Virus record (IMG/VR): IMGVR_UViG_3300042988_001938
Length of the DNA stretch: 64,000 nucleotides
DNA from: an uncultured virus (IMG/VR IMGVR_UViG_3300042988_001938)
Lineage: Duplodnaviria > Heunggongvirae > Uroviricota > Caudoviricetes
Strand: one strand, 5' to 3'
Of this stretch, positions 63 through 38,530 are shown piece by piece. The notes under the pieces are model-generated. The model saw only the letters and a program-made list of their open reading frames with translations, searched no databases and was not told the DNA's origin. Within the stretch, counting starts at the first letter, position 1; each line of letters opens with the position of its first letter. A program made the translations under genes and the position numbers.

Positions 63-183
63 AAAATTATAAATCTATTTGTTTTTTTATTATAAATTTA
101 GAAAATTGTGCAAACCCAGAGTTTAATGCAGGCTGGAGTCTACTCTTCCGACTGTATTTCAAAGCCAGGCCCCTTTTATATAG
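63..183 (-). ncRNA. putative small RNA cassette (family copy 1)
   Basis: No ORF between motif copies 184 and 34; core AGAGTAGACTCCAGCCTGC (128-146) shared with three other non-coding cassettes. Confidence 0.5.
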
Positions 184-307
184 CTCTAACAACTGGAATC
201 TCAAAAATCACAAAACCCCCAGTTGGTAGGCTGGGGGTCTCGCTGGACTAAACAAACAGGGCTAACCAGCCCACCTGCACGCAGCAGGTCTCGACAAACA
301 AACTTTT

Positions 308-499
308 TTATTTATTTTCAGTTACGCTTTTAATAGCGTCAATGTAATCTTTCTGCAACTTCTCTGCTCCTGCCTCATCTACCGTCTTCAACTTGGCAAT
401 AAGGTCATTTACACCACAACCCTTAACAGGAAGTGTTTTATTTTTGATGGCTTTCAGTTTTGTCTTGATAGCCTTCTCTAGGTCGTCTGCGTAACTCAT
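308..499 (-). CDS. hypothetical protein
   Basis: ATG at 499 (MSYADD...) directly after the stop of 501..680. Confidence 0.7.
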   Translation of the reverse strand: MSYADDLEKAIKTKLKAIKNKTLPVKGCGVNDLIAKLKTVDEAGAEKLQKDYIDAIKSVTENK

Positions 500-500
500 C

Positions 501-680
501 TTAGTTCTCTTCTTTAATTTCAACTGTCAAAATACCGTCTGTGTTAATATCTTTAGGCAACTCAACCTCTGTGTTGTAGACATTTGAAATTTGAAGTGCT
601 CGACCAATTTCAATCAGGCGTACCGCTAGTTGGTCTACTGACCCACTTCCTGAAATGTTTATGTTTAAGTTCTTTGCCAT
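501..680 (-). CDS. hypothetical protein (59 aa, not in ORF track)
   Basis: Hand-translated MAKNLNINISGSGSVDQLAVRL...; ATG 16 nt downstream of motif 697. Confidence 0.7.
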   Translation of the reverse strand: MAKNLNINISGSGSVDQLAVRLIEIGRALQISNVYNTEVELPKDINTDGILTVEIKEEN

Positions 681-729
681 TTTACTTTCTTTACTTATCT
701 AACAACCCGTTTCTCAAAAATCACAGAGT

Positions 730-984
730 TTATTTTGTTAACTTTTCAATCAACTCATTTGGAGTTCCTTTCCAAGTTTTTCCACCAATAGAAACTTCAA
801 TTTCGCAGTTTTCTCTTCTTTTATAAGATTCACCAAAACCCTCAAAAGCATCCACAGAAATGTAATCTTCATGTGAGTTGTTTTCAGAGCCGCCCACAAA
901 AGAAACAACTTGTCCTTTGTTTTCTTGGTAAGAAGGGCTTCCGCCTCTAACACCTGTAACTTTTAAGTTTATTTTTGCGCTCAT
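730..984 (-). CDS. hypothetical protein
   Basis: ATG (MSAKIN) downstream of motif 999; the track's longer start lies inside the motif. Confidence 0.75.
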   Translation of the reverse strand: MSAKINLKVTGVRGGSPSYQENKGQVVSFVGGSENNSHEDYISVDAFEGFGESYKRRENCEIEVSIGGKTWKGTPNELIEKLTK

Positions 985-1029
985 AAATTCGTTTTTAACT
1001 CTAACCACTCGTTTCTCAAAAATCACAAA

Positions 1030-1236
1030 TCAAATGTTTGACTGTGCAATAATTTCCTTTGCTTCATTGGTGAACTCATCATCACTCAAAGCCAATAGTC
1101 GGTCTTTCTCTTCTTCGTCAAACCAAACTGAAACAGCAACAACGTTGTCAGTTACAAGAGCAAGGTTAAATAATCCCTTTGCCATAAGGTTTCCTTCGTT
1201 AAGGCGAATATCGTTTACTTGTCTTAAAACATTCAT
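1030..1236 (-). CDS. hypothetical protein
   Basis: Fills the interval between motifs 1260 and 999. Confidence 0.75.
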   Translation of the reverse strand: MNVLRQVNDIRLNEGNLMAKGLFNLALVTDNVVAVSVWFDEEEKDRLLALSDDEFTNEAKEIIAQSNI

Positions 1237-1290
1237 GTCTATATCATTTGGTTACAAGACTCTAACAACTCGTTTCTCAAAAATCACAAA

Positions 1291-1758
1291 TTACTTATGA
1301 CTTTTTATATATTCCATTTTTTTAGCCAAGGCTTCTTTCATCATGTCCTCAGTGAACCAAGAAAACATTCTGCTGTCAATTACCATGTGAACGAATGTCT
1401 CCACATGAACAACAAAAAATGAACCAGCTGGCTTAACTTCAATTTTGTACTTGTGAGGAATTCCACCGCTACAACTCCAAGAACCATTTTCTTTAATAAA
1501 GCAAGAAATTGTTTCTAAGTTTTCATTGTAGTCAAGACTTTGAGTGTGGACGTGCCAAGCAAGGTCGTTCTTGCTAATTCTCTCCCATCTGTTCCAATTA
1601 CTTGTATGCTCCGAATAGAACCCGTTAAGGAGGTCTGTAACATATCGTGCAACGTCCTCAAGAGTTGGAAGTGTTATTGAACTTGTTCCCTCTTGCGCAG
1701 AAACATATGAAGTTCCCGTTGCGTGTAAATTGTTTGCTTCAAATTTTATTAGTTCCAT
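1291..1758 (-). CDS. hypothetical protein (leaderless)
   Basis: ATG 4 nt from motif 1763. Confidence 0.8.
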   Translation of the reverse strand: MELIKFEANNLHATGTSYVSAQEGTSSITLPTLEDVARYVTDLLNGFYSEHTSNWNRWERISKNDLAWHVHTQSLDYNENLETISCFIKENGSWSCSGGIPHKYKIEVKPAGSFFVVHVETFVHMVIDSRMFSWFTEDMMKEALAKKMEYIKSHK

Positions 1759-1847
1759 GTTACTCTAACAACTCAGTTCTCAAAAATCACAAAGGGAGAG
1801 AAAAACTTCCCTCCCCTTGCAACATGAAAACAAACAACAAACTTTAG

Positions 1848-1922
1848 TGGCACATCAGGGATTCGAACCCAATCAACCTATTATTTCAGTTGCGCCTTCA
1901 CTAGGGAAGCCAATCATGTGCC
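1848..1922 (-). ncRNA. tRNA-like element (degenerate tRNA)
   Basis: Acceptor stem GGCACAT/ATGTGCC plus A, T-arm GGGTTCGAATCCC; non-canonical D and anticodon arms. Confidence 0.55.
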
Positions 1923-1941
1923 GTTTTTTAAGCAGGGAGAA

Positions 1942-2172
1942 TTAACTCCACTGCTTCATTTTTTCTGTGAAGTATGTTACAACTTCGGGAATGTATTTTT
2001 TGTAGTAAGGCTGGTTGTCCATGCACCACTTCTTAACTTCATCTTTTGTCTTGAAGGGGTCAATGTGTGAGCGACCACTCATAATCATATCGAACGTAGG
2101 TTCAAGTTCCTCAATGAACGCCCCAACTGTCCAACCTTCCCAAATGTGCTTATTCAAATTTACGTTTGCCAT
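1942..2172 (-). CDS. hypothetical protein
   Basis: Downstream of motif 2192. Confidence 0.8.
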   Translation of the reverse strand: MANVNLNKHIWEGWTVGAFIEELEPTFDMIMSGRSHIDPFKTKDEVKKWCMDNQPYYKKYIPEVVTYFTEKMKQWS

Positions 2173-2224
2173 ATCTGTTTGTCTTATATTACTCTAACAA
2201 CTCATTTCTCAAAAATCACAAGAG

Positions 2225-2674
2225 TTACTTTAGCAACTCATGTTTTAAGCTTCCAATTCGCTTGTAGAACCCTGCTGTGTGTTTTGAGTCATTAAGTCCA
2301 AGCAACTTGTAGTCGAAGTGGTGACAAAGCTCATGTAGGAGCGTATCCAGTGTTGTCTTGTTCGCTACCACCTTTCCAGTCTTAGCTGTGTGCTTGTAAA
2401 GTGTAATAGTGCTTCCAAGCGCTCTGTAAGTTCCATAAATCTTTGAGGCAAGCGTACCTTTGGAGTTTGTACTGTGCGGCTGCTTTCCACCGTATGAAAT
2501 CGAGCAAACTGGAACTGCGAGGTCCTTGCAAATTGCGTCTGCAATAGACTTTAGTTCACCAACCGTCAAGCTGTCTGCGTTGAAAAACTTTTGGAACTGT
2601 GCTCTTGTTCCTGTCTTAATTTTATTAAGTTTTGGAAGTGTCTCAATGCTGTTTGAAATTTCGTAAGTTGTCAT
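2225..2674 (-). CDS. SprT-like / zincin metallopeptidase-domain protein
   Basis: TLLHELCHH (HExxH) followed by H-x-x-x-F near the C-terminus. Confidence 0.7.
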   Translation of the reverse strand: MTTYEISNSIETLPKLNKIKTGTRAQFQKFFNADSLTVGELKSIADAICKDLAVPVCSISYGGKQPHSTNSKGTLASKIYGTYRALGSTITLYKHTAKTGKVVANKTTLDTLLHELCHHFDYKLLGLNDSKHTAGFYKRIGSLKHELLK

Positions 2675-2724
2675 GTTGCTTGTTTTGTTTGTTTACAACA
2701 CTCTAACAACTCAATTCTCAAAAA

Positions 2725-2931
2725 TCACAAGTACTTTTTACCAAATTCTACAATTTTTTCATTTGGCAAACAAGAATATTTAATATGAATTGGAATTGAA
2801 ACTTTCAGTGCTTTTAGAATCTCTTCTTTTTCTGCTTCATCAGTCTCCTCTTCAAGTTTTTGAATTAAATTAAGTGTTACCTCTTTTAAGAGACCTAAAT
2901 CAATTGTACTGAATAAATTTTCTAAAGTCAT
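2725..2931 (-). CDS. hypothetical protein
   Basis: Stop TGA lies in motif 2701. Confidence 0.75.
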   Translation of the reverse strand: MTLENLFSTIDLGLLKEVTLNLIQKLEEETDEAEKEEILKALKVSIPIHIKYSCLPNEKIVEFGKKYL

Positions 2932-2986
2932 ATTGAGTGTTTATATAAGTCTAACAACTGGAATCTCAATAATCACAATGATGCCA

Positions 2987-3253
2987 CTATTTAATAATGG
3001 CATCAATCTTTTCTTTCTCACTGAAGTTCTTGATGTATTTATCATAGAATTCGGAGTTTGTTGCCTTTTGCTTCTCTGTTGGCTTTAAATAGAATTTTCT
3101 AAAAGACTCAAATCCAGCAATTGAAATACCTATAAATCCAAGTCTTTCATTTACATGAAATGTTAATTCAATTTTACCGTATTTTCTAAAATCAGACTGT
3201 GAAACTGCGCCAGTTGAAACGGTGTTATCTGTTGTAAATCCTGAAATATTCAT
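2987..3253 (-). CDS. hypothetical protein
   Basis: Between motifs 3277 and 2949. Confidence 0.75.
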   Translation of the reverse strand: MNISGFTTDNTVSTGAVSQSDFRKYGKIELTFHVNERLGFIGISIAGFESFRKFYLKPTEKQKATNSEFYDKYIKNFSEKEKIDAIIK

Positions 3254-3300
3254 TATCTTGTTGTTTGGTTACGACACTCTAACAACTCGATTTTCAAAAA

Positions 3301-3597
3301 TCACAGTTTAATTCCTGTAATTACAATTCGCTTATCACTAATATAAGAATACTCAAATAAATCTTTAAACATTTGTTCTTGGTCATCAAAAGGAAAACAC
3401 TCATCCCAATTAACATCAAGAACTGGTTTATCCCCCTCCATTGTCAATCGCATCATACCCTGACCACTTGTTCTTGAGTCTGCTCCAAAAAGCCAAAATG
3501 CTTTGTATTTTTGGTTTGTGAGAATGAATACAATAATTGTCTGCAATTCCATTGCTTTAAGACTTTGAGCTTTTTTCTTTAAATATTGAATGTTCAT
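3301..3597 (-). CDS. hypothetical protein (leaderless)
   Basis: ATG 4 nt from motif 3602; stop in motif 3277. Confidence 0.8.
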   Translation of the reverse strand: MNIQYLKKKAQSLKAMELQTIIVFILTNQKYKAFWLFGADSRTSGQGMMRLTMEGDKPVLDVNWDECFPFDDQEQMFKDLFEYSYISDKRIVITGIKL

Positions 3598-3625
3598 ATC
3601 ACTCTAACAATTAAGTTTTCAAAAA

Positions 3626-3835
3626 TCACAATTTCTCCACCAGCTTAAGTGTGTTTTCATTGACAAGACAAGGCAATGAAAATTTTCCTTCTCCACGGTC
3701 AATAAGTACAATAGCTTCTCCATTTTCGAATTTGCTAAGAATTCCTTTGATTAGAACTCCATTGTGAATACCACAGCACCCAATTGCGCTTACTTGGTGT
3801 CCAATCATTTTATTCACTTCATCAAGAAATACCAT
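3626..3835 (-). CDS. hypothetical protein
   Basis: Stop in motif 3602. Confidence 0.75.
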   Translation of the reverse strand: MVFLDEVNKMIGHQVSAIGCCGIHNGVLIKGILSKFENGEAIVLIDRGEGKFSLPCLVNENTLKLVEKL

Positions 3836-3886
3836 GTTCGTTTTGTTTGCTATAACACTCTAACAACCTAAATCTCAAAAATCACA

Positions 3887-3990
3887 GATTGGCTTGAGGA
3901 GTCCTTTAAAAAAAAATAAGGAGCAGGTTGGAGTCTACCCTCCGCAACAAACAAAGTTGTTGAGCCTGTCTCGGTCTCCCACCGACATAA
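3887..3990 (-). ncRNA. putative small RNA cassette (family copy 2)
   Basis: Motif-flanked, no ORF, hairpins, core AGGGTAGACTCCAACCTGC (3923-3941) then T-tract. Confidence 0.55.
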
Positions 3991-4025
3991 CTCTAACAAC
4001 TCAAATCTCAAAAATCACAACCTTC

Positions 4026-4388
4026 CTACTGAATAGTTATAAAGTACCCACCTCCCAAATATTTCTGTCTAACTTCTTTGTGGTCTCTTCTAAATACTTC
4101 ACGAGCAGCCATTTTGTTTTTTGCCTGAACGGTGCAAGTCCAAAAAACCTCTCTACTTCGGTTGACAATTTTAATGACAAAACTTTTTTCTCCTGATTTT
4201 TTTATTTGGCTTGAGTAGGCTTGTGTGTTAATTGCCGCTCGTTCCTCAGCTCGTTCTCTCAGGTAATGAGCTTTTTCTTCTTCGCTCAAAATAGTACCAT
4301 CCAATGTCAGCCTGTCTCTCTCTTCGGGTGTTAAACCCTCCCAGAAATCCATTTGCTCCATTGAGCCATATTCGTCATTAATATCCAT
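4026..4388 (-). CDS. hypothetical protein
   Basis: Downstream of motif 4412. Confidence 0.8.
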   Translation of the reverse strand: MDINDEYGSMEQMDFWEGLTPEERDRLTLDGTILSEEEKAHYLRERAEERAAINTQAYSSQIKKSGEKSFVIKIVNRSREVFWTCTVQAKNKMAAREVFRRDHKEVRQKYLGGGYFITIQ

Positions 4389-4435
4389 GATAAGCCTTTA
4401 TATTTACAACACTCTAACAACCCAAATCTCAAAAA

Positions 4436-4750
4436 TCACCAACGACCACGCTTTCCGCCCTTGTTTTTTCTTCCCATGAACTTGGAGAACGGGTGGTAAC
4501 TCTCAATCTCTCTCTTGGTAGGAATGTATTCAGTCTCAAATTTTGGAGGCGCAGTTAATAGAATTGTCTCCATTGAAAGTTGTCTTTGTTGCATAATTTC
4601 TTCGTGTTCATTAATATTTTCAAGTGTTGTAATTAAAATACCACCTTTCATGCTTGCTTCTAAACTTGCATTTTCTGCTATTAGTCTCCTAGTAGCTTCC
4701 ATACAAAAACCCATACCAACTACTATAACATTAATTTTCTGCTTTTTCAT
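4436..4750 (-). CDS. hypothetical protein
   Basis: ATG (MKKQKI) after the stop of 4753..4896; stop in motif 4412. Confidence 0.7.
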   Translation of the reverse strand: MKKQKINVIVVGMGFCMEATRRLIAENASLEASMKGGILITTLENINEHEEIMQQRQLSMETILLTAPPKFETEYIPTKREIESYHPFSKFMGRKNKGGKRGRW

Positions 4751-4752
4751 AA

Positions 4753-4896
4753 CTAGAGTTGAACTGTTGTTGAACATTCGAATCGTGTGCCATCCTCATT
4801 GTATAGCCACTGGGTAAGGAGTGTTCCCTTATTTTGTTCTGCAGCAACTTTTTTTGCTTCATCACTCAATTGCTGGTATTTGTATGCTGTTCTCAT
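4753..4896 (-). CDS. small hypothetical protein (47 aa, leaderless)
   Basis: MRTAYKYQQLSDEAKKVA...; ATG 4 nt from motif 4901. Confidence 0.65.
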   Translation of the reverse strand: MRTAYKYQQLSDEAKKVAAEQNKGTLLTQWLYNEDGTRFECSTTVQL

Positions 4897-4924
4897 AATG
4901 TTCTAACAACTAATTTCTCAAAAA

Positions 4925-6025
4925 TCACACATAGTACTCAACATCTTCGCTGTGGGTAATAGAATGTACAATTCTTACAATTCTATAAAATCCCTCACCA
5001 GAACATCTCTCCTTAAAAATTTCTTTTCCGTTTCTTAGTTCGCAAATTTCATAAGGAAGTGTGTTTGGCTTATTCAGTTGAGTTTTATAAATTTTCTTAA
5101 CTAAATACTTGCAATAATCACCACTTCTTAGTCGTCTAATATTGCAATAAGCATTTCCTCTTGAGTAGTACAATTCATGTCTTGCATAACTAAACTGCAA
5201 GACAACCAAGTTATCATCCCCCTCTTGTAATTCACTCGCATCTACTTTTTGAAAATAAACATGACAGCGTTTTTCATAATCCCAAACACAAATGTTATCT
5301 TTATTTTTAACAAAACCTTTTTCATCTATGCAGTCGCTAGGAACTCTATAAGGCATTCCATGTTGTAGCCATCTCCAAGAAGAAAGTTTTTCATCTCGGT
5401 AAACAAGACCATCAATAATTTGAATCGGTGTATGCTTGTATGGGTATTTTGTTGCAAAGTCAAGAGTTCCCTCCTCAGACTTAAATTCACACTCCCAAAA
5501 TTGAACTGTATTTACTTCAAAGTCTTTACCTAGAACATTGAATATTTTTTGTGCTAAATCAGAATCATTCAAAATCACATGGCTTCCAGTATCTTTTGCA
5601 ACCCAGTCAAAACCTCTGTAAACATAAAAGTTTCCAGTAGTAGAATTTGCTTCCCAACCACCAAGAGTTAGCGTGTTATCAGCGGAAGCGTGTCCAGACC
5701 CATCAAGTCTAAAAGACAAATGTGTAATAAATTTAGCTCTACCTCTGTTTTCAACTTTTCCAAAAAAGTCTTGAAACTCCTTAGGTAACTCCTTAACTTT
5801 TAGTATCGCTGGACCTCGGTCTTTACCTGTAAATCTATCAATTCCACAGTCCCAATCGTGAACATGGCAGTTATAATGAATAATGTCTGCGCAATAAACA
5901 TGAACTCCATCAATCTTATCGTATCGACTATTCTCATAGACAGCATAAATAGACTCAATTCGTTTGCCGTTGAACTTCGGCAATTCATCATATTTTATTA
6001 ATGTCTTTTCGTTTCCTAGTGCCAT
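4925..6025 (-). CDS. hypothetical protein (366 aa, largest in the array)
   Basis: Long ORF; stop in motif 4901. Confidence 0.85.
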   Translation of the reverse strand: MALGNEKTLIKYDELPKFNGKRIESIYAVYENSRYDKIDGVHVYCADIIHYNCHVHDWDCGIDRFTGKDRGPAILKVKELPKEFQDFFGKVENRGRAKFITHLSFRLDGSGHASADNTLTLGGWEANSTTGNFYVYRGFDWVAKDTGSHVILNDSDLAQKIFNVLGKDFEVNTVQFWECEFKSEEGTLDFATKYPYKHTPIQIIDGLVYRDEKLSSWRWLQHGMPYRVPSDCIDEKGFVKNKDNICVWDYEKRCHVYFQKVDASELQEGDDNLVVLQFSYARHELYYSRGNAYCNIRRLRSGDYCKYLVKKIYKTQLNKPNTLPYEICELRNGKEIFKERCSGEGFYRIVRIVHSITHSEDVEYYV

Positions 6026-6135
6026 AATGTCTATGTTTTTTAATCTAACAACTCAATTCTCAAAAATCACAAAATCAAAAAGGGGAAGCATTTACTCCCC
6101 CGATTTGGTAACAAACAAACAACAAACTAAAATCT

Positions 6136-6627
6136 TTATTCTTCGACTCCTTCGCCTAAGTATTCATTAATAATCTCGTACTGTGGCATTCCATCTAGGT
6201 CAAGCTCACTTTCTCTTTCTTCAAGAAGAACCATTTCACCAGTACATTGAATCTTGACAAACTTTTCATAAGCTTTCTCTTTATCTTCAAAGTATTCATA
6301 TACAATATATCCGTTCTTACCATGTGTTCCAACTCGGAAATTTGGTGTAATCCCATCAATAACGGAGTCAATCGCAATGCAAAGGTCTTCTAATTTTAGA
6401 GAATCAAAGCTATATTCATATCCTGAATTGTCAAACAATCCATCTTCTGAAATCTCAACAAGCCAACCATTTGAGCCTAAGTTAAACATAGCTTCATCAT
6501 CGTGAATCATAATCACAAGACGACTATTTGTGAATCTACTCTGAACCCCTTTTGTTTCAAGAAGTGTTTCAATAGTATCTTTAACCTTTTGGTTAAATGT
6601 TTCAAGTTTTGCTCCTAATTTTTCCAT
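6136..6627 (-). CDS. hypothetical acidic protein (leaderless)
   Basis: ATG 4 nt from motif 6632; hairpin terminator at about 6075-6103. Confidence 0.8.
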   Translation of the reverse strand: MEKLGAKLETFNQKVKDTIETLLETKGVQSRFTNSRLVIMIHDDEAMFNLGSNGWLVEISEDGLFDNSGYEYSFDSLKLEDLCIAIDSVIDGITPNFRVGTHGKNGYIVYEYFEDKEKAYEKFVKIQCTGEMVLLEERESELDLDGMPQYEIINEYLGEGVEE

Positions 6628-6655
6628 GACTCTCTAACAATTGGTTTCTCAAAAA

Positions 6656-6835
6656 TCACATAGAGTATTTTTTCAACTTCTTGAAGGACTTGGTGTGTCT
6701 TCCTTTCTTCACGTCATCTTGCGAGAAGAAGAAACAACCTTTTTCCTTGGTTGATAGAATTGCTTCCATCTTTGTCGGACGTGCTCTTAGGAAATCCCCT
6801 TTGCTGTTGAATACGTATGTCTTTTGATTTTTCAT
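6656..6835 (-). CDS. small basic hypothetical protein (59 aa, leaderless)
   Basis: MKNQKTYVFNSKGDFLRAR...; ATG 4 nt from motif 6840, stop in motif 6632. Confidence 0.7.
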   Translation of the reverse strand: MKNQKTYVFNSKGDFLRARPTKMEAILSTKEKGCFFFSQDDVKKGRHTKSFKKLKKYSM

Positions 6836-6856
6836 ACTACTCTAACAACTCATTTC

Positions 6857-7207
6857 TCAAAAATCACGCATGAAATCATCCAACTCTTCTCTCAACTCCA
6901 ATTGGGTTGCAATCTTTTGCACTTCCTCAATGACAAACTTATCGCCATTAACAACTTCAAGTTTTAGGTAGGTCAAGACAATTGACTTTAGGCTTGCATT
7001 GTCAATCCCTGAAACGTAAACACCAAACCCACGAGAAAGGTAATGAGAACGCTTAAATCCTAATCCTACTGGGCGCAAGTCCTCTTCCTTTGCTCGTAGG
7101 CTCTCTCCATTCAGTTTCATTACTGAAACCTCATCATTCATCAATTTTCCTGACTGAATGGTAACCACTCCAAATCGTGGGTGCTGTCTGTAGTTTGTAA
7201 AATCCAT
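6857..7207 (-). CDS. hypothetical protein (leaderless)
   Basis: ATG 4 nt from motif 7212; stop is the second TGA of motif 6840. Confidence 0.8.
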   Translation of the reverse strand: MDFTNYRQHPRFGVVTIQSGKLMNDEVSVMKLNGESLRAKEEDLRPVGLGFKRSHYLSRGFGVYVSGIDNASLKSIVLTYLKLEVVNGDKFVIEEVQKIATQLELREELDDFMRDF

Positions 7208-7235
7208 GACTCTCTAACAATTGACTTCTCAAAAA

Positions 7236-7754
7236 TCACAGAAGAATTTCAGCAATTCTTTCAAACTCCTTGAAGGTGTCCTCCAGCGTTGTGTAAAACC
7301 CGTGTGGAATATTTCCACCATAGACCTTAAGAGTCTCGGTCATAAAGCTATCTTGCTTCTTGAACTCTGTGTATTTACCCTCTCTGAGAGAGTCAACGTT
7401 TTGATAAAAACTGAACTCCTCAACGTACAACACCTTGTTATTTTGGTTTTGGTGAACTCTTAGGAGCGACTTGCCAGCCTTAAGTCTTTCTTCAAGACCC
7501 TCCTTGCGTGAAATCTTAACATCAAAGAATACCTTAAGGTCGCCAGCCTTAGCAATCACTCTGTCTCGACTTCTGTTGGGACAAGCACCCCAATTGTGAC
7601 CAACACCAAGTTCAATCACAATTCCACGCTGGGTGTTAACTGCGTCTTTTAGTGTTGTCGGGCAAAGTTCAATCACTTGCGAAGCTGAAAAATAGCAAGT
7701 TGAGTCTGCTAAAATCTTTTGATTAATTTTTAGTCCATCCATCTTTAAAATCAT
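7236..7754 (-). CDS. hypothetical protein
   Basis: Stop in motif 7212. Confidence 0.8.
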   Translation of the reverse strand: MILKMDGLKINQKILADSTCYFSASQVIELCPTTLKDAVNTQRGIVIELGVGHNWGACPNRSRDRVIAKAGDLKVFFDVKISRKEGLEERLKAGKSLLRVHQNQNNKVLYVEEFSFYQNVDSLREGKYTEFKKQDSFMTETLKVYGGNIPHGFYTTLEDTFKEFERIAEILL

Positions 7755-7794
7755 TTAGTCCGACCATCTAACAACTCATCTCTCAAAAATCACA

Positions 7795-7820
7795 AACCCC
7801 AGGAAAATTCTCCTGGGGTC
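7795..7820 (-). terminator. intrinsic terminator hairpin whose T-tail merges into the motif
   Basis: ACCCCAGGA-N5-TCCTGGGGT then TTGTGATTTTT. Confidence 0.7.
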
Positions 7821-7832
7821 TGCTATAGGTTT

Positions 7833-8246: not shown

Positions 8247-8343
8247 TTTTTTGTTTTACGTTGAGCCTCTAACAACGCAAATCTCAAAAATCACAAAAAG
8301 AAAAGGAGAGCAAAAGCCCTCCAATCCTACGTGTAACCAAACA

Positions 8344-9302: not shown

Positions 9303-9330
9303 ATCCCTCTAACAACTGGTTTCTCAAAAA

Positions 9331-9669: not shown

Positions 9670-9703
9670 ATTATTCTAACAATTGGTTTCTCAAAAATCA
9701 CAA

Positions 9704-9922
9704 TCAGTTAAGCATGGCAGACCAAAGAATGTTTCTCTTTCTCATCAAGACAATCAACTCTTGAGCCTTTGAGTTCTGTTCCTTTGTTATTACGTCCTTC
9801 GGAGTTCCATCGCTATTGAATAGTTCTGTCTTTAGGGAGAGTAGTCTTTTTGTTTCCTCGTGAGACATACCTGCTAGTCCGTCAATGATATGTTCGCCCT
9901 TAAGAAAAATTGGATTGTTCAT
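9704..9922 (-). CDS. hypothetical protein
   Basis: Between motifs 9944 and 9674. Confidence 0.75.
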   Translation of the reverse strand: MNNPIFLKGEHIIDGLAGMSHEETKRLLSLKTELFNSDGTPKDVITKEQNSKAQELIVLMRKRNILWSAMLN

Positions 9923-9974
9923 GTTGTTTGTTTTTGTTCAAAGCTCTAACAACCCAATTATCAAAAATCACAAA

Positions 9975-10308
9975 AACCCCAAGCCCTAAAAGGTTGAGGA
10001 GTTTTTGCTTTTTGTTCTTTTAATCAGTCCGAGAACACTTTTATCGGTCTTGCCGTTACCCGACCTTCGGAATCGCTCTAGGAGGATGCGCCCTTGTTGT
10101 CGCAACCACCATGGCATTGCGGACGGGTAAATCGGCTAATAATCATCTTTTTGGCGTTTATCTAGTGCTATCTCAACCCCGTAGCCACACGAGGTGCGCT
10201 GTTTTTGGAACAGTGGCTTGTCCCATTATCAGCACGTTCGCCATCTTAAGACTAATTAAAGAACTCTTTTGCAGTCACCGTAGCATAAGCCCAACATCTT
10301 GACCGCAA
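9975..10308 (-). ncRNA. large structured non-coding RNA candidate (~300 nt)
   Basis: GC-richer, no minus-strand ORF; long-range stem GTTCTTTAATTAGTC/GACTGATTAAAAGAAC encloses several helices; ECF-type promoter upstream, terminator hairpin downstream. Confidence 0.65.
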
Positions 10309-10312
10309 TTCT

Positions 10313-10341
10313 TTTTACGAAATTATTTAAAAAATGTTACA
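10313..10341 (-). promoter_or_regulatory. ECF-sigma-type promoter (TGTAACATTTTT...CGTAAAA)
   Basis: Same AAC...CGTA pattern at 18244, 31677, 35629, 41483, 41910 (minus) and 41945 (plus). Confidence 0.65.
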
Positions 10342-10349
10342 ATTTTCTC

Positions 10350-10523
10350 TTAACAATTTGGCAACCTTGCCCGTGCTTCTGGGCTGCTCAAGTATCCGTG
10401 GGCTACTCGGACTCGTTGAAGCACTATCTTCTGCCCATGACCCTGGAAGGTCATTCTCTCCGCCAACTTGCTTGCCTGCAAGACGACTATGAGAAGGAGT
10501 GCTGTTATCATTAGTGCTATCAT
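10350..10523 (-). CDS. small membrane-anchored hypothetical protein (57 aa, leaderless)
   Basis: MIALMITALLLIVVLQ...; ATG 4 nt from motif 10528. Confidence 0.6.
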   Translation of the reverse strand: MIALMITALLLIVVLQASKLAERMTFQGHGQKIVLQRVRVAHGYLSSPEARARLPNC

Positions 10524-10551
10524 GCTACTCTAACAATTTGTTTCTCAAAAA

Positions 10552-10698
10552 TCACAGAAGACCCAAGATTTTCTTCGCTTCCATCAAGACTTCCTCTTGC
10601 ATTTCAGCATCTGTCTTCTGCTTACGCTTTTCTCGCACCTTGTTAATGCGCTCTGCTTTTCTTTTTCTCTCAATGAGAAGTGTCTGTCTCTCGTTCAT
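10552..10698 (-). CDS. small basic hypothetical protein (48 aa, leaderless)
   Basis: MNERQTLLIERKRKAER...; ATG 4 nt from motif 10703, stop in motif 10528. Confidence 0.7.
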   Translation of the reverse strand: MNERQTLLIERKRKAERINKVREKRKQKTDAEMQEEVLMEAKKILGLL

Positions 10699-10863
10699 GT
10701 CTCTCTAACAATTGGTTTCTCAAAAATCACGAGGGGGCTTGTGTTCCCCTCGGCTTTCTCCTTTGTGAATATTACTTCTCTCCAAAGTAATATTCCATCA
10801 ATGCTACCTCTTTTTCGTACATGGTTCTCTTTTTATTTGTTCAACACTCTAACAACTCATTTC

Positions 10864-11277
10864 TCAAAAATCACAGCCTTCTCCACACTCGCAATATTCA
10901 GGACGAAGACCGCAAAAATCGCAATTTGCTACATGACAACCATGAGCCTCCCATGAGCCATCGAAATCGTCAACGTGATTCTTCATGGTTTCCACATCAG
11001 GAAATCCGAACTCTCGTGCTTTCTCAGGCAGAATAACGTTATGGTAGTACGCTGAATTAGCGGGTGAAATTCTCGTGGTGTTACAACGCTTACTTGGGTC
11101 AACGTTGTTCCAATAGTTGTCCTTACACTTCGTTCCTCCCTTACTCTTGCAAAATACGCTTTGGTAGGACTTCTTGACGTGGCTCGTTCCACATGAAGGA
11201 CAAACAATGGTATCCCCAACCTTTGCATCAAGACATTTCTGTCTTGCTTGAATTAGTTTTTGTTTGTTCTTGTTCAT
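10864..11277 (-). CDS. Cys-rich (zinc-ribbon-like) hypothetical protein
   Basis: CPSC, FC..C, CDFC..CEC; leaderless; stop in motif 10847. Confidence 0.8.
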   Translation of the reverse strand: MNKNKQKLIQARQKCLDAKVGDTIVCPSCGTSHVKKSYQSVFCKSKGGTKCKDNYWNNVDPSKRCNTTRISPANSAYYHNVILPEKAREFGFPDVETMKNHVDDFDGSWEAHGCHVANCDFCGLRPEYCECGEGCDF

Positions 11278-11291
11278 GAGACTCTAACAAC

Positions 11292-11600
11292 TCAATTCTC
11301 AAAAATCACAGACATAGTTATGCAATCAGTTTCATCATCATGCTCCTCCAAGTCTGCATACTCTTCAGAATTGTATTTAATCTTAATGCCTTTGCGCTGT
11401 TCCTCGGTCAATTCAGAAAGGAACTTTTTCTCTGCTTCCTTCCAAGAAAGCGTGCGTGGGTATGGAGACCATCTGTCAAAAATCCAAACACGCTCTTCAG
11501 CTTTAACTTGAATTGAGGTTAATGAGTTTTGTGTGTCATCCTCAAGAAAATAAATCTTGCCGAATACTTCAGTAATGTGTTGTCTGTCTTGTGTCGTCAT
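11292..11600 (-). CDS. hypothetical protein (leaderless)
   Basis: Reads into motif 11282 (VIFEN*). Confidence 0.75.
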   Translation of the reverse strand: MTTQDRQHITEVFGKIYFLEDDTQNSLTSIQVKAEERVWIFDRWSPYPRTLSWKEAEKKFLSELTEEQRKGIKIKYNSEEYADLEEHDDETDCITMSVIFEN

Positions 11601-11628
11601 ACCTCTCTAACAACCAAAATCTCAAAAA

Positions 11629-11970
11629 TCACAAGTACTTAACTTTGTCTTGCAATTTATTTAAGTAATAAGGGGTATTTAATTCTCTTGCATCTGAAAG
11701 GTGTACTTCATACTCTTCATCTGTTACAAAATAGTCACCACTCTCAGGCTCTAAGTCATCTTGAAGGCTATTTTCATTCCAATCCTCCATTTCCTCTCTT
11801 TGCGTTCCAGCGACCTCTGCAACAGTCCCACCAACTGAACTTACCCAGAATAAAAACTTTCCATGTGAGAACAAGTAGTGAATAGTGTTTTCAGCATCTT
11901 CAAATACATTTTTTTTGAAGAAACGAAACTGTTCCTTATCGTTAATGTCGAAACTCAACTTATTTTCCAT
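11629..11970 (-). CDS. hypothetical acidic protein (leaderless)
   Basis: ATG 4 nt from motif 11975; stop in motif 11605. Confidence 0.8.
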   Translation of the reverse strand: MENKLSFDINDKEQFRFFKKNVFEDAENTIHYLFSHGKFLFWVSSVGGTVAEVAGTQREEMEDWNENSLQDDLEPESGDYFVTDEEYEVHLSDARELNTPYYLNKLQDKVKYL

Positions 11971-12159
11971 GGAACTCTAACAACCAGAATCTCAAAAATC
12001 ACAACTTCGTTGTTCGTGCCGAAGCAAATCAAAAAGAGGGATACTCCTGTATCCCTCAATCTGGTAACGTAAAACAACAAACAAAAATCTTTATTCTTCT
12101 GGGTGCCTGTCTGGCTTCAGAACCAGCATCTCATCTTCAGGTCATCCCTTGTATCCTAG

Positions 12160-12233
12160 TACTCCCATCAGGATTCGAACCTGAGACCTACTGCTTAGAA
12201 GGCAGTTGCTCTATCCAGCTGAGCTATGGGAGC
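12160..12233 (-). tRNA. tRNA-Arg(UCU)
   Basis: GCTCCCA/TGGGAGT acceptor, D-arm AGCTCAGCTGGATAGAGC, ACTGC-CTTCTAA-GCAGT anticodon arm, GGTTCGAATCC; no encoded CCA; motif 12242 lies 8 nt upstream. Confidence 0.95.
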
Positions 12234-12265
12234 TTATATATTTCTAACAACTGATTTCTCAAAAA

Positions 12266-12529
12266 TCACACTTTCACCAAGTAACAAGAGAAATCAATGT
12301 CATTTTCTGCAGAAGTCTTAGCCATTGATTTTTCTACATCGTATCCAAACGAGGTAATTAACGACTTGAATTTTTCAAACTGAGTCTTCGTAAGAAACAC
12401 AACTGCATTGTGAAAAATGCCATCTGTACGACCACCCATTGTGTCACCTCGCATGGCGGAGAACAAAAACAAAGCATTGTTCTTTAATCCCACCTTGATA
12501 ATTTCCTGTTTATTTGCTGAATTCTTCAT
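12266..12529 (-). CDS. hypothetical protein (leaderless)
   Basis: ATG 4 nt from motif 12534; stop in motif 12242. Confidence 0.8.
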   Translation of the reverse strand: MKNSANKQEIIKVGLKNNALFLFSAMRGDTMGGRTDGIFHNAVVFLTKTQFEKFKSLITSFGYDVEKSMAKTSAENDIDFSCYLVKV

Positions 12530-12557
12530 GATACTCTAACAACTGATTTTTCAAAAA

Positions 12558-12791
12558 TCACAAAGTCTTTCTTCTCAATTGGTAAACTCTCATTTTTAAA
12601 CTTGAGACTGCACCTTCAATAGTTGAGCCTTGACCATGACAATTTGAGAATTCTCCACCCAATAAAGTTGTGCTATAAAGACCTGTGAAAACATCACGAC
12701 TAAATGAAAACTTCATTGTTCCACCTCCAACTCCTAATAGGGGAGTGGAGTAAATTCCATTAGGGCTTTCGCAAGTAATAATAGTTTCCAT
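12558..12791 (-). CDS. hypothetical protein
   Basis: Stop in motif 12534. Confidence 0.75.
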   Translation of the reverse strand: METIITCESPNGIYSTPLLGVGGGTMKFSFSRDVFTGLYSTTLLGGEFSNCHGQGSTIEGAVSSLKMRVYQLRRKTL

Positions 12792-12837
12792 GTCTGTTTG
12801 TTTAATTACAACACTCTAACAACTCAGTTCTCAAAAA

Positions 12838-13053
12838 TCACAAGGGAGAATTGGCTGCATCAATTCCACGCTGGAACGCTGCATCTGAAAAACCTGACAA
12901 AGACTCGCAAAGTTCTGCAATGTCTTGCTCATAGTATCCAGCAAAGAAGCAAACGTCAACAATTCTTTCGAACAAGGGAGACCCCTCTGGATTCTGAATG
13001 GGGTAGTGCTTCTTAACCACCTCCGCAACTGATTCTTTATCAATGTGTGCCAT
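12838..13053 (-). CDS. hypothetical protein
   Basis: Stop in motif 12814. Confidence 0.7.
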   Translation of the reverse strand: MAHIDKESVAEVVKKHYPIQNPEGSPLFERIVDVCFFAGYYEQDIAELCESLSGFSDAAFQRGIDAANSPL

Positions 13054-13238
13054 ATCTTATTTTTAAAGAGGGGAAAGTCAAACCATCATCTGTATTCAAT
13101 CAAATCCAAGTGATGATGAGGTTCTTGGCAACCATTTTAATGACTTCCCCCATTACTCTAACAACCCAAATATCAAAAATCACAAGAAAGGGAGAGGCAA
13201 TGCCCCTCCCAAACTCTGTAAACAAACAACTAACTTCT

Positions 13239-13856
13239 TTAGTAGTTTTGCACTTGTCGTAATCTGTATTTATCTGTGTATCTACCTCCGTTGTAGGCAT
13301 CACAACAAACTCCGCAAGCGTGCTTTACTCTAGTAGCTTTTTTGTGGCGAGGCGTTTCCTTGCCGCAATTATCACAAATCAATGTGTATTTTGTAGTCTT
13401 TTTTTCTGTCGGCTCTCCACCTATCGGAACACATCTTTCTGCTATTGAAAGGACTTGTGTTGCAATATTCTTCCACTTATAACTATGGTCGCTAAATCCT
13501 CTTATCTCAAAGTCAATAGCGTGTGCAATCTCGTGTCGAATAGTGTTCTCAAATCTCCACGCCTTGTCTAAGTGTTGCTCAAGGTACCAAGTAGAAACAT
13601 AAATGGTTTTCTTTCTTCCAGAGCAAAGTCCAAGAGCCGTTTTTCTTGTATTAAACTCAAAGTGCCATCCAAGGTCAATTAAGTTAAACTCCTTGCGTGT
13701 GAAACTGTTAATGTCAATCGTCCAAGTTGAATTCAGCAATTGAATTGCCAACTGCTTTATCTCCTCCTTTGTTGTGCTTTGCTCTCTATTGAAGAATAAC
13801 TTTTTTGTCAAGTCCTCGAATAGTGCATCGAATTTTGGGTCTTTGATAAGTTTCAT
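13239..13856 (-). CDS. SprT-family zinc metalloprotease-domain protein
   Basis: R..LGLC, HEIAHA, H...WK, C-terminal CxxC...CxxC. Confidence 0.85.
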   Translation of the reverse strand: MKLIKDPKFDALFEDLTKKLFFNREQSTTKEEIKQLAIQLLNSTWTIDINSFTRKEFNLIDLGWHFEFNTRKTALGLCSGRKKTIYVSTWYLEQHLDKAWRFENTIRHEIAHAIDFEIRGFSDHSYKWKNIATQVLSIAERCVPIGGEPTEKKTTKYTLICDNCGKETPRHKKATRVKHACGVCCDAYNGGRYTDKYRLRQVQNY

Positions 13857-13905
13857 GTCGTGTTGTTTATCTGTTACAATACTCTAACAACTGATTTCTC
13901 AAAAA

Positions 13906-14100
13906 TCACAACTCCCAATTATGTGCTTCGCAAATTACAATTGCATCTTCAATCTTGTACGTTTCATCGTAGTGCTTCAAGTTTGTTACCCACATTCTTG
14001 CACTCACCTTACCGAAGTACTTGTCAAAAAACTCTCTCTTTTCAACTGAAAGGTTATCTAAAATATCTTGCTCTTTCTTTGTTAAATTTGGCTTGTCCAT
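13906..14100 (-). CDS. hypothetical protein
   Basis: ATG (MDKPNL) downstream of motif 14125; stop in motif 13882. Confidence 0.7.
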   Translation of the reverse strand: MDKPNLTKKEQDILDNLSVEKREFFDKYFGKVSARMWVTNLKHYDETYKIEDAIVICEAHNWEL

Positions 14101-14148
14101 GTTGTTTGCTGTTTCGTTACAACACTCTAACAACCCAAATCTCAAAAA

Positions 14149-14424
14149 TCACAAGTCATTCAATGACTTTCTTATCACAAAGTAACCATGCTTGAATGGT
14201 TGAGTTCCAGTGTCGCATGGAATTGATATATCAACAAAGTCAAAACCATCCTCCGTGTCATGTACTGAAAAAACTTGGTAATTTTCTTCGTCATCTTGAT
14301 ACTCCCTAACCTCGTCAAGTCTTTCGGGGTGCAAGAAAACGAAATCTCCATATTTCTCAGAAGAACCCTCTCGTGCCTTAATAACTCTGTCTCCGTACTT
14401 TGAGAAAAATTCTTCTTTGGTCAT
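14149..14424 (-). CDS. hypothetical protein (leaderless)
   Basis: ATG 4 nt from motif 14429; stop in motif 14125. Confidence 0.8.
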   Translation of the reverse strand: MTKEEFFSKYGDRVIKAREGSSEKYGDFVFLHPERLDEVREYQDDEENYQVFSVHDTEDGFDFVDISIPCDTGTQPFKHGYFVIRKSLNDL

Positions 14425-14452
14425 ATCACTCTAACAACTGACTTATCAAAAA

Positions 14453-14917
14453 TCACAACTCAACATCCACAGAGCACTCAAGCCAAATCGGTTCATCCTC
14501 ACCTCTTGCGCCAATAATGTTAAAGTATGCGTATTCTTGCGCTCCTTCATAGTCCCAATTATTCTGAGCCATCAAAATTTCAATAAGTTTCTCGACTGAG
14601 TAAATCAAGCGCATAGAATGGTAATCAAAGCCCATAACCGCTTCATCAAAGCCCTCTTGCTTTCCTATTAAGTCATTGCCAAGGTTCGCTTCAAGAAACT
14701 CCATTCGGCTCGGTCCTTTATAGGTGTTTTCTTTTTCCGCTTCCTTCAATGACTCATTGATAATTCCCTTTACCAATATGTCATTGGCGAAGAATAAGGC
14801 AATACAAACCACCATCAATGGTGCTCCAATGGCTACATTCCCGAACGCCAATAGAATTACGGCAATTGGAAGTAGTACGACTAAGGGGTAGAAAATTGCA
14901 ATGTGAATTTTTTTCAT
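14453..14917 (-). CDS. membrane protein with conserved phage domain
   Basis: Two N-terminal hydrophobic helices; GFDEAVMG...IYSVEK...A.EY..FNI.GA domain related to 43843..44364. Confidence 0.75.
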   Translation of the reverse strand: MKKIHIAIFYPLVVLLPIAVILLAFGNVAIGAPLMVVCIALFFANDILVKGIINESLKEAEKENTYKGPSRMEFLEANLGNDLIGKQEGFDEAVMGFDYHSMRLIYSVEKLIEILMAQNNWDYEGAQEYAYFNIIGARGEDEPIWLECSVDVEL

Positions 14918-14966
14918 GACTGTTTGTTTATCTGTTACATTACTCTAACAACTCATTTCTCAAAAA

Positions 14967-15302
14967 TCACACAATCTCGCTTAATTCTTTTTCTAAATCC
15001 TCTCTCGTAATCCCATACTCCAAGCAAGCAATTTCTTTAAACAACTCCAATTTTTCCTGACCAACACGAATCGCATCATTAATGGTTGGAAATATATCAG
15101 AAGCCAAAATATCTTTTTTATCTTCTAATTCCCCAGTGTGCCAGCCACCAGCGTCATTAACAAACACATACCGACCTACAGCAAGTTCCTTCTTCATGAA
15201 CTCAATACCACTATCGAGAACATTAACCCTTACGTTTTCAAGTTCTTGAATGCTTGATATAATCATCCAATAAACTCCGTTGTAAAATCCAAATAGTTTC
15301 AT
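14967..15302 (-). CDS. hypothetical protein
   Basis: Stop in motif 14943. Confidence 0.8.
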   Translation of the reverse strand: MKLFGFYNGVYWMIISSIQELENVRVNVLDSGIEFMKKELAVGRYVFVNDAGGWHTGELEDKKDILASDIFPTINDAIRVGQEKLELFKEIACLEYGITREDLEKELSEIV

Positions 15303-15360
15303 GTTGTGTTCGTCTTATATCTGTTACACCACTCTAACAACCCAAATCTCAAAAATCACA

Positions 15361-15465
15361 AGAGCATCTTGAGGGAGACCCTAAAAAAAATAAAGAGCAG
15401 GCTGGAGTCCACCCTATGCGCTTTCCGAAGAATGCGAACCCGTATCGCTTGTGGCACCTACACCA
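15361..15465 (-). ncRNA. putative small RNA cassette (family copy 3)
   Basis: Motif-flanked; GTAGGTGC..AGCGATACGGGTTC..AGGGTGGACTCCAGCCTGC..T-tract. Confidence 0.6.
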
Positions 15466-15489
15466 CTCTAACAACCCAATTCTCAAAAA

Positions 15490-15699
15490 TCACAGGTTTG
15501 TTTCCTTCCAATCCTGGTACTCACAGAAAATAACCAGAACACCCTTGCTTGGCTTTTTCTTCTGGAACTCCTCATGTTCCTCCTCGCTCATCGAAATAAC
15601 TGCTTCAATAGTGCTAACAACTTTCGCATCCATGTGAGAGCCAATCTTTACAATATTGCTTCTCTCTAGTTCCTTTATAAATTCAATTGTCTTGCTCAT
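15490..15699 (-). CDS. hypothetical protein (leaderless)
   Basis: ATG 4 nt from motif 15704; stop in motif 15466. Confidence 0.75.
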   Translation of the reverse strand: MSKTIEFIKELERSNIVKIGSHMDAKVVSTIEAVISMSEEEHEEFQKKKPSKGVLVIFCEYQDWKETNL

Positions 15700-15732
15700 G
15701 ATACTCTAACAACCCAATTCTCAAAAATCACA

Positions 15733-15761
15733 AAAAAGGCTTCACAACCGTGAAGCCTTTC
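15733..15761 (-). terminator. intrinsic terminator
   Basis: AAAGGCTTCAC-GGTT-GTGAAGCCTTTTTTT running into the motif. Confidence 0.75.
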
Positions 15762-15815
15762 AATTTTTCCGAAATATCTATTAATCTTATTTGAGTTTAA
15801 TGTTTTCCTCGCCCG

Positions 15816-16049
15816 TTAAGTAAAGCCCACAGGGTACTCCTTAGCGTTTGAGAATGCCCCATTGGGCTTGCGTGCGTTCAACTCAACAAAGACCTCAAGA
15901 CCTACAGCGAAATCGCCTACCTCTTCATCAATCGCCATAACCGCCTGAGAGGTCGAAGCCACCACCTGAACATCAGGCTTCTGCTTCTCGAACTTCTCTG
16001 CTTGATGGCTTGAGAACAAGAGGGTTAATATGAGTGTCGTTATTATCAT
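15816..16049 (-). CDS. hypothetical secreted protein
   Basis: N-terminal signal-peptide-like segment; downstream of motif 16057. Confidence 0.65.
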   Translation of the reverse strand: MIITTLILTLLFSSHQAEKFEKQKPDVQVVASTSQAVMAIDEEVGDFAVGLEVFVELNARKPNGAFSNAKEYPVGFT

Positions 16050-16089
16050 TCTGTTACTCTAACAATTGGTTTCTCAAAAATCACAAGAC

Positions 16090-16302
16090 TTAGGCGTTTA
16101 ATATTTTATCTGCCATTCTTCCAATTCTTCTTAACTCCTCAAGAGCATGAGAATTCAAAGTGCTAACTGAAATTAAATCAACCTCCTGAATACCTTGAAG
16201 CGTGTTTACAATTTCGTTCTTTGTATCAAAAATCATCGCTTCTTTCTCATCAGTGAATATTTTTCCATTCACTTCAAATGCGTTTATTTTATTTACTGCC
16301 AT
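16090..16302 (-). CDS. hypothetical protein
   Basis: Downstream of motif 16323. Confidence 0.75.
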   Translation of the reverse strand: MAVNKINAFEVNGKIFTDEKEAMIFDTKNEIVNTLQGIQEVDLISVSTLNSHALEELRRIGRMADKILNA

Positions 16303-16365
16303 GTCGTTTGTTGTTTATATCTTTCTAACAATTGGTTTCTCAAAAATCACAAGATATTGAAGGTT

Positions 16366-16686
16366 TCACCCCTCAACTCTTGAATTAATTACACTTATCA
16401 AAACGTCCACGTAAATCCCTTCCATCTTGTCAACAATCTTTCCTTTCGCTGTCGTGAAGTATAGGGTGAATGTATCATCCCAACCAAGAGCAATATAAAC
16501 GTGTCCGTAGTGCTTTCTTCCTTGAACCATGAAGCGTGCAAACAAGTCCTTGTGAACCGCAAAGGCATGAGCGCCCCAGCAAGCCATTGTCCAAAATGCA
16601 CCCTTTCTCATGGCTGTTAATAACTCCTTTGGGTCGAAACTTCTTTGCCCAATTTTGTCTGTCTCAATTGTTTCTCCAATATTCAT
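16366..16686 (-). CDS. hypothetical protein
   Basis: ATG (MNIGET) downstream of motif 16711. Confidence 0.8.
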   Translation of the reverse strand: MNIGETIETDKIGQRSFDPKELLTAMRKGAFWTMACWGAHAFAVHKDLFARFMVQGRKHYGHVYIALGWDDTFTLYFTTAKGKIVDKMEGIYVDVLISVINSRVEG

Positions 16687-16750
16687 GTTGCTTGTTGTTT
16701 GGTTACAACACTCTAACAACCCAAATCTCAAAAATCACAAAGGGAGACTT

Positions 16751-17050
16751 TTAATTTAAGTTAATATCCCCTAGCAATTCATCAACCGCCTTTTGAGCCT
16801 GCATATCCTCCACAATCTCTTCAAGTTTGTGAGTGCTCTCAATATTTAATGAGAACGCTCCAATAGACTTATCTACCCAATGAATGTGGACTTTAAGACC
16901 AATGATGTATGGTTGCTCGTTTTCAGGTCGAATAACGGCTAAAAACTCTGTTGTTCCCTTAACTTGCTGACCAATGTTTGCGAAAGGGAGAAGCTCCTGC
17001 AAAGCTTGAACTACCAAGTCCAATTCTTCTTTACCATTCAAAAATTCCAT
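16751..17050 (-). CDS. hypothetical protein (leaderless)
   Basis: ATG 4 nt from motif 17055. Confidence 0.8.
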   Translation of the reverse strand: MEFLNGKEELDLVVQALQELLPFANIGQQVKGTTEFLAVIRPENEQPYIIGLKVHIHWVDKSIGAFSLNIESTHKLEEIVEDMQAQKAVDELLGDINLN

Positions 17051-17145
17051 ATTATTCTAACAACCCACTTCTCAAAAATCACAACTTCTATTTTTTTAGA
17101 AATAAAGGGAGAGTTCTGTGATTTTTGAAATTCCAGTTGTTAGAG

Positions 17146-17230
17146 TATTGTAGGTGCGAGAGCGATACGGGTTCAGGGAGAGATTTCTGCAGAGGGTAGA
17201 CTCCGACCTACCTTATATTTTTTTTGGGGA
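17146..17230 (+). ncRNA. putative small RNA cassette (family copy 4, inverted)
   Basis: After inverted motif 17117; GTAGGTGC..AGCGATACGGGTTC..AGGGTAGACTCCGACCTAC..T-tract. Confidence 0.6.
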
Positions 17231-38526: not shown

Positions 38527-38530
38527 TTTC

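Follow-up and report, generated by a model that had tools for sequence, protein, structure and literature searches.

A previously uncatalogued family of short, probably structured RNAs dispersed through phage genomes

Introduction

What are the four short units that recur in the genome of an uncultured virus of the Caudoviricetes (IMG/VR record IMGVR_UViG_3300042988_001938), each led by the same promoter-like motif and each carrying the same 19-nt core? The 64,000-nt stretch analysed here, hereafter the window, was initially annotated from its letters alone, and the units were read as short, non-coding and promoter-driven RNAs in which a variable middle accompanies a conserved core, belonging to a family that was not recognised. 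Much less of the non-coding RNA repertoire of phages has been charted than of their proteins. We asked what comparative analysis could say about the units. The units very probably belong to a genuine, trans-encoded structured RNA family. Relatives by the hundreds and strong covariation in the variable hairpin bear out the initial description, and a search of Rfam returned no matching model. The RNA family itself is previously uncatalogued, while its cassette frame and the existence of autonomous small phage RNA genes are of kinds already known. As to function, we tentatively favour, with a probability of about 40%, an abundant early decoy or sponge that would act in trans on one common partner, be it a protein or a small ligand.

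Results

The core AGRGTRGACTCCRRCCTRC occurs four times in the window, each time just downstream of a copy of the promoter-like motif (Table 1). Only 0.07 matches were expected, and none of 100 shuffles reached four. The positions agree with those first reported for four motif-led units lacking open reading frames (ORFs). Small ORFs (67-204, 3868-4011 and 15349-15486) do overlap units; each starts within the motif itself, ahead of the predicted RNA start. Counted from that start, the predicted RNAs are ~62-78 nt long. Runs of eight or nine T terminate copies 2-4, in line with the claim that three of the four units end in a T-tract, and copy 1 has no such run. Also as claimed, copies 3 and 4 have GTAGGTGC..AGCGATACGGGTTC in common. 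Copy 1 scored 47.1 bits with covariance model R1, and beyond the four units this model gave no significant match in the window. A possible degenerate fifth copy was noticed by eye behind another motif. Its core-like stretch lacks GAC and its GG run is lost, and its score of 8.6 bits (E 7.8) was not significant.

The family extends well beyond the window. Exact matches to the core numbered 124 in 119 IMG/VR stretches and comprised 92 unique sequences, 90 of which also agree in their upstream context. In metagenomes, the exact core was present in at least 124 stretches, and the matches listed there included 113 unique sequences not seen before, 104 of them in the family context. Covariance model R2 located 138 copies in 48 viral records selected for holding the core, with a maximum of 12 copies in one 40-kb fragment and nine in each of three others. 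These copies cluster within 10-30 kb, where they lie scattered in both orientations at distances from hundreds of bases to kilobases, rather than arranged in tandem. Carriers of the RNA include many large, uncultured phages, and it is common in contigs of marine and freshwater origin, whether viral or metagenomic.

The exact core was present in 41 stretches among 185,579 bacterial and archaeal species genomes (one each), of which we judged ~13 by eye to be family members. These sit on small, phage-like contigs of metagenome-assembled genomes, and the remaining matches were attributable to chance in GC-rich coding DNA. Under strict filters, the covariance model matched none of 151 Bacteroidota genomes. 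A search of 50,697 deposited phage records (INPHARED) yielded the family in Tenacibaculum phage Larrie (ON950054) alone. At least three copies are present there (~16935-16990, ~18784-18838 and ~19417-19470), all unannotated and on the strand opposite to the genes. Since some family copies stand tail to tail, Larrie may have a fourth copy that the model missed. The INPHARED phages included no near relative of the window, to which they matched at tRNA only.

Catalogues and literature were equally silent. At the gathering threshold, Rfam 15 identified only a tRNA in the whole window (12160-12233), and in E-value mode 10 family loci plus window positions 15300-17300 gave only weak, unrelated matches below gathering. 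Neither ARAGORN nor the Rfam tRNA model called a tRNA at the four units, and no tRNA genes were found in 60 family loci of ~800 nt. Searching the literature with the letters of the core returned unrelated primer matches only. Among the papers listed by word searches, none dealt with this RNA family.

We next considered whether the sequences share a fold. Aligning 76 members with MAFFT and folding them with RNAalifold gave only a 4-bp GUAG/CUAC stem because MAFFT misaligns the variable hairpin, and we therefore used covariance models instead. In the resulting alignment A5, 83.3% of cells pair, compared with 74.5 ± 0.6 in shuffles, and 120 cells are changed on both sides, compared with 41.6 ± 6.5; no shuffle of 500 reached either value. 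When partners were slid as a control, 27-52% of cells paired. Covariation in homologues, which the initial annotation had proposed as a check, is present. In 89 of 93 members, the base after the GGG is complementary to the second base upstream of the core (C-G in 48, U-A in 41). This pair closes the variable hairpin (P2), whose sequence is free and whose length ranges from 3 to 8 pairs.

Family members are ~55-80 nt long. An optional 5' hairpin (P1) with the form GUN-RRU-helix-loop-helix-GA-N'AC, which includes a conserved 3x2 internal loop, opens 26 of 94 members, window copies 2-4 among them. Its third pair covaries, being C-G in 9, A-U in 7 and U-A in 6 of the 26. A GG(G) run follows, then the variable hairpin, and finally a 3' hairpin made of the core and the next three bases, in which AGRGURG faces CURC-YUU around the loop ACUCCRRC. 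Of 94 members, 85 pair G2 of this hairpin with tail base 2, and 66 pair A1 with tail base 3. Its 5' strand AGRGU and its loop (AGACUCC plus two purines) are near-invariant. Since divergent copies retain AGAGUAGACUCC nearly unchanged while their tails fall into three sequence classes, all complementary to AGAGU, what stays invariant in the RNA is the GG run plus, in the last hairpin, the 5' strand and the loop. The 3' hairpin with its U-run doubles as a terminator: a terminator scan flagged a GC-containing hairpin followed by a U-run in copies 2-4, and did not flag copy 1.

One structural claim was not supported across the family. In the initial annotation, the 5' GTAGGT of copies 3 and 4 could pair with the 3' RCCTRC, yet this helix is complete in just 4 of the 26 members with a 5' hairpin, and the 5' end forms a local, covarying hairpin instead. 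The minimum-energy single-sequence folds of copies 3 and 4 do use the 5'-3' helix, which may represent an alternative, terminator-excluding fold.

Some members depart from this plan at their 3' ends. In L045, L117, L129, L142 and L101, an AT-rich hairpin (UUUAGA-N4-UCUAAA closed by CUUAU/AUAAG) located 13-35 nt past the core replaces the U-run, and a related string, TCTAAA-YTTATAA, follows window copies 1 and 4. In L162 and L171, the loop of the 3' hairpin accommodates an additional hairpin, along with a duplicated GACUCC.

The promoter-like motif, GTGATTTTTGARATTNNNGTTGTTAGAG, is 28 nt long and has 48 copies within window positions 1-18400, of which 47 are on the minus strand. The motif conforms to neither sigma-70 spacing nor the -33/-7 promoter of Bacteroidota. 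In 11 early ORFs, an ATG lies exactly 4 nt past the motif's TTAGAR. These ORFs are probably leaderless messages, and no Shine-Dalgarno sequences were found at window genes. Because the 11 ORFs put their ATG at this distance, we placed the RNA start at the fifth base after TTAGAG, which yields the predicted 5' ends in Table 1; the early timing of the four units is likewise presumed. Terminator-like hairpins directly precede several motif copies (e.g., 7823-7792, 243-210 and 9355-9333). The motif array thereby has the layout of the promoter-early stem-loop (PeSL) type of promoter-terminator cassette, a likeness that concerns the frame and not the RNA inside it.

Table 1. Predicted RNA units of the window and the motif copies that lead them (P1, 5' hairpin; P2, variable hairpin; 5' ends as predicted from the motif)
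Feature	Position	Strand	Details
Motif of RNA copy 1	184-211	-	0 mismatches
RNA copy 1	179 to ~118	-	no 5' hairpin; GGGG 170-173; P2 148-169; core 128-146
RNA copy 1, tail	118-122	-	ACUCU, complementary to AGAGU; 3' end only approximate, no T-run
Motif of RNA copy 2	3991-4018	-	from motif scan
RNA copy 2	3986 to ~3909	-	P1 3968-3986; AGG 3965-3967; P2 3943-3964; core 3923-3941; terminator-like hairpin flagged at 3940-3921; T9 3908-3916
Motif of RNA copy 3	15466-15493	-	from motif scan
RNA copy 3	15461 to ~15384	-	P1 15442-15461; GGG 15439-15441; P2 15417-15438 (UUCG-capped)
RNA copy 3, 3' part		-	core 15397-15415; 3' hairpin 15394-15415; T8 15383-15390
Motif of RNA copy 4	17118-17145	+	sole plus-strand motif copy
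RNA copy 4	17150 to ~17224	+	P1 17150-17168; GGG 17169-17171; P2 17172-17191 (GAGA-capped)
RNA copy 4, 3' part		+	core 17193-17211; 3' hairpin 17193-17214; T8 17218-17225
Motif of possible fifth copy	18338-18365	-	
Possible degenerate fifth copy	18333 to ~18260	-	core-like stretch 18305-18287

The early array holds other units without ORFs. A tRNA-Arg(UCU) unit (12159-12269) begins 4-5 nt past the motif copy at 12242-12269. Behind the motif at 17397-17424 lies an ORF-less transcript of ~130 nt (17255-17392, minus strand), convergent with RNA copy 4 and ending in a GC-rich hairpin and U-run near 17255-17290; it is outside the RNA family. At 18141-18186 (minus strand) there is an "empty" cassette, in which the motif at 18191-18218 is followed by an A6..U6 hairpin alone and then by the motif at 18113-18140.

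Orientation relative to the neighbouring genes was informative. Copy 4 runs opposite to all of its neighbours, and copies 1-3 are co-oriented with theirs. Of 43 copies in the window and in five RNA-rich regions belonging to other phages, 21 are flanked by two genes that are both on the other strand, and 12 are co-oriented with the genes on both sides. Because so many copies oppose both neighbours, the units are autonomous RNA genes rather than leaders. In some cases, two copies stand tail to tail on opposite strands (L115 249-349; L005 and L043; L161 2124-2230), such that their 3' ends would be mutually complementary.

The RNA-rich regions are accessory in character, with many small ORFans alongside SprT-like, DUF932 and GP88 proteins (Pfam). 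Proteins from the promoter-rich region of the window were 35-60% identical to proteins of the RNA-rich regions in seven of the nine pairs returned (two pairs at 37%, one at 20%). These identities imply that the window phage shares a gene pool with phages using Bacteroidota-type promoters, although its own promoter motif differs from theirs. Other members stand behind a third type, and the RNA sequence is thus maintained behind at least three different promoter types. Short TTGTTAA/TTTAACA repeats, which may be the binding site of a regulator, occur beside the RNA genes of several unrelated phages (L161 3840-3910 and 4470-4540; also L010, L048, L065, L082, L033 and L058). Elsewhere, the window encodes a ParB-like gene (22864-23631) and several auxiliary genes: an HD and AAA_33 kinase fusion (34473-35606), an NAD synthase (37651-38658), a nicotinate phosphoribosyltransferase (40230-41459), an enzyme of the CCA-adding/poly(A) polymerase family (42427-43848) and a thymidylate synthase (47953-49047).

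Discussion

What might such an RNA do for a phage? We favour a decoy or sponge because the RNA is phage-only, multi-copy, driven by strong early-type promoters, located in accessory regions in either orientation, and built around an invariant face. Each RNA would be made from one copy of a promoter that belongs to the phage itself and is presumed early, and would fold into the optional 5' hairpin, the GG(G) run, the free hairpin and the 3' hairpin, the last of which would stop transcription with its U-run. The invariant face, consisting of the GGG run and the loop of the 3' hairpin, possibly pseudoknotted, would be the docking site for one partner, and the variable hairpins would act as a scaffold. 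Many strongly expressed copies could then soak up the partner in trans within the first minutes of infection, in the service of host take-over or counter-defence. High dosage, early-type promoters, a phage-only range and the lack of a host look-alike together suggest a stoichiometric role of this sort. A narrower version, to which we give little credence, is an aptamer-type sponge whose pocket (GGG plus the AGAGUAGACUCC hairpin) binds an immune-signalling nucleotide or another universal small molecule; if true, it would be the RNA counterpart of phage protein sponges against cyclic-nucleotide defence systems. Because the cultured phage Larrie carries copies, the question is open to bench work.

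Several observations weigh against the proposed fold and function. Neighbouring proteins searched with Pfam (105) and PHROGs (50) included no RNA-binding candidate. Single-sequence folding energies of the four units were no better than those of shuffles (z = +1.13, -0.21, +0.86 and -1.18). A T-run of at least six within 16 nt of the core is found in only 37 of 94 members, and a few divergent copies have no GG run, even though they keep the loop. The candidate GGG:CUCC pseudoknot is without covariation support, although covariation cannot assess it since both of its sides are invariant. Its sole variable pair, the first G with the purine after CUCC, was C-G in 6 of 7 cases in the first set but showed no real signal once 104 metagenome members were added. 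Finally, finding the RNA in 48 of 48 viral records is a matter of construction, given how those records were selected.

An unlikely alternative to a decoy or sponge is that the units are cis-acting transcription modules with no function in trans, such as terminators, insulators or attenuators, or that they are selfish cassettes spread by recombination. The 3' hairpin and U-run do resemble an intrinsic terminator, and the early region of the window is made of terminator-promoter junctions like those of T4-type PeSL cassettes (PMC2839356). Furthermore, copies 3 and 4 use the 5'-3' helix in single-sequence folds, which would exclude the terminator, and their 5' GUAGGU might oppose formation of the terminator stem. 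However, that helix is rarely complete in the family, and a bare terminator needs neither an invariant loop nor an invariant stem sequence. The RNA sequence is also kept behind unrelated promoters, and its variable hairpin covaries. In 23 of 40 copies, the gene that lies downstream is on the opposite strand. We therefore rejected a leader, attenuator or put-like antiterminator role as the general function of the family.

Rather unlikely, too, is a base-pairing regulatory RNA that uses the invariant loop and the 5' strand of the 3' hairpin as a seed for a conserved host or phage RNA. In its favour, the most conserved bases are in the loop carried by a terminator stem, a placement shared with many antisense RNAs, and the genes are autonomous in either orientation. 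Yet the antisense role suggested in the initial annotation found no target above chance. Sites in the window similar or complementary to GTAGACTCC with at most one mismatch numbered 7, compared with 7.55 expected, and four of them were the copies themselves. Near-matches of 14 nt on both strands of 101 Bacteroidota genomes were at or below a reversed-pattern control, and exact complements in the 185,579 species genomes did not exceed chance. A regulator with a short seed of 6-8 nt could still have escaped these searches.

We consider it improbable that the RNA mimics a host nucleic acid, whether as a solitary CRISPR repeat (RNA anti-CRISPR, or Racr), a type III antitoxin repeat, or part of a tRNA or rRNA. 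The units are phage-encoded, promoter-driven, short, multi-copy and located in accessory regions, and Racrs offer a precedent (PMC10651486). Nevertheless, the core occurred in no host array or host copy among the 185,579 species genomes and the sets of 151 and 101 Bacteroidota genomes, and near-matches in the set of 101 also failed to exceed the control. Copies are dispersed rather than tandem, the hallmarks of type VI-B repeats are absent, and ARAGORN and Rfam indicate no likeness to tRNA or rRNA. These results lend no support to the CRISPR-repeat and antitoxin-repeat mimics that had been proposed from the sequence, although a mimic of structure alone could still have gone undetected. We also dropped apparent resemblances to 5S rRNA loop E, the 16S 3' domain, the SRP Alu hairpin, boxA and the T-loop, on all of which the Rfam models were silent; loop E additionally conflicts with the pairing register set by covariation of the base after the GGG. 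A self-cleaving ribozyme or other catalytic RNA is highly improbable: an RNA this small, with its invariant core, candidate pseudoknot and phage association, would suit one, but no Rfam ribozyme matched and we saw no conserved cleavage-site logic.

Type III antitoxin RNAs (ToxI-like) consist of tandem direct repeats beside a toxin gene, and a phage mimic would match the host repeat. By contrast, the copies described here are dispersed in both orientations, and no tandem host copies were found among the 185,579 species genomes. Orphan riboswitch-like aptamers and trans-acting riboswitch RNAs have invariant junction and loop bases with free peripheral hairpins. Our family resembles them in its invariant bases, free peripheral hairpins and optional extra stem. 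It differs in being multi-copy and stand-alone, with no downstream gene to control and no known ligand.

Type VI-B (Cas13b) repeats are 36 nt long, with 5'-GUUG and CAAC-3' ends and a poly-U open loop (10.1101/092577). The family consensus has neither the 36-nt GUUG...CAAC frame nor the poly-U loop, and on these published features we rejected a resemblance to Cas13b repeats. Racrs imitate the CRISPR repeats of their hosts (Camara-Wilpert et al. 2023, PMC10651486). Like them, our RNAs are small, non-coding, phage-encoded, transcribed from their own promoter and potential decoys, but we found no host repeat or array resembling them, which is what defines a Racr. The HK022 put RNA, one of the nascent-RNA antitermination elements, acts in cis on polymerase reading into the early genes (PMC9378689), and likewise consists of two hairpins made straight after early promoters. 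In our family, however, over half of the copies are directed away from any gene downstream, and many have a terminator of their own at the end. The PeSL cassettes of T4-type phages are modules of regulatory DNA and terminators that belong to a single phage lineage (Arbiol et al. 2010, PMC2839356). Both systems have dense, strong early promoters abutting terminator stem-loops in plastic, ORFan-rich regions, with many cassettes per genome. What sets the present family apart is that the space between the promoter and the U-run is taken up by a particular folded RNA, whose 3' hairpin is invariant, and that this RNA recurs behind unrelated promoter types in many phages.

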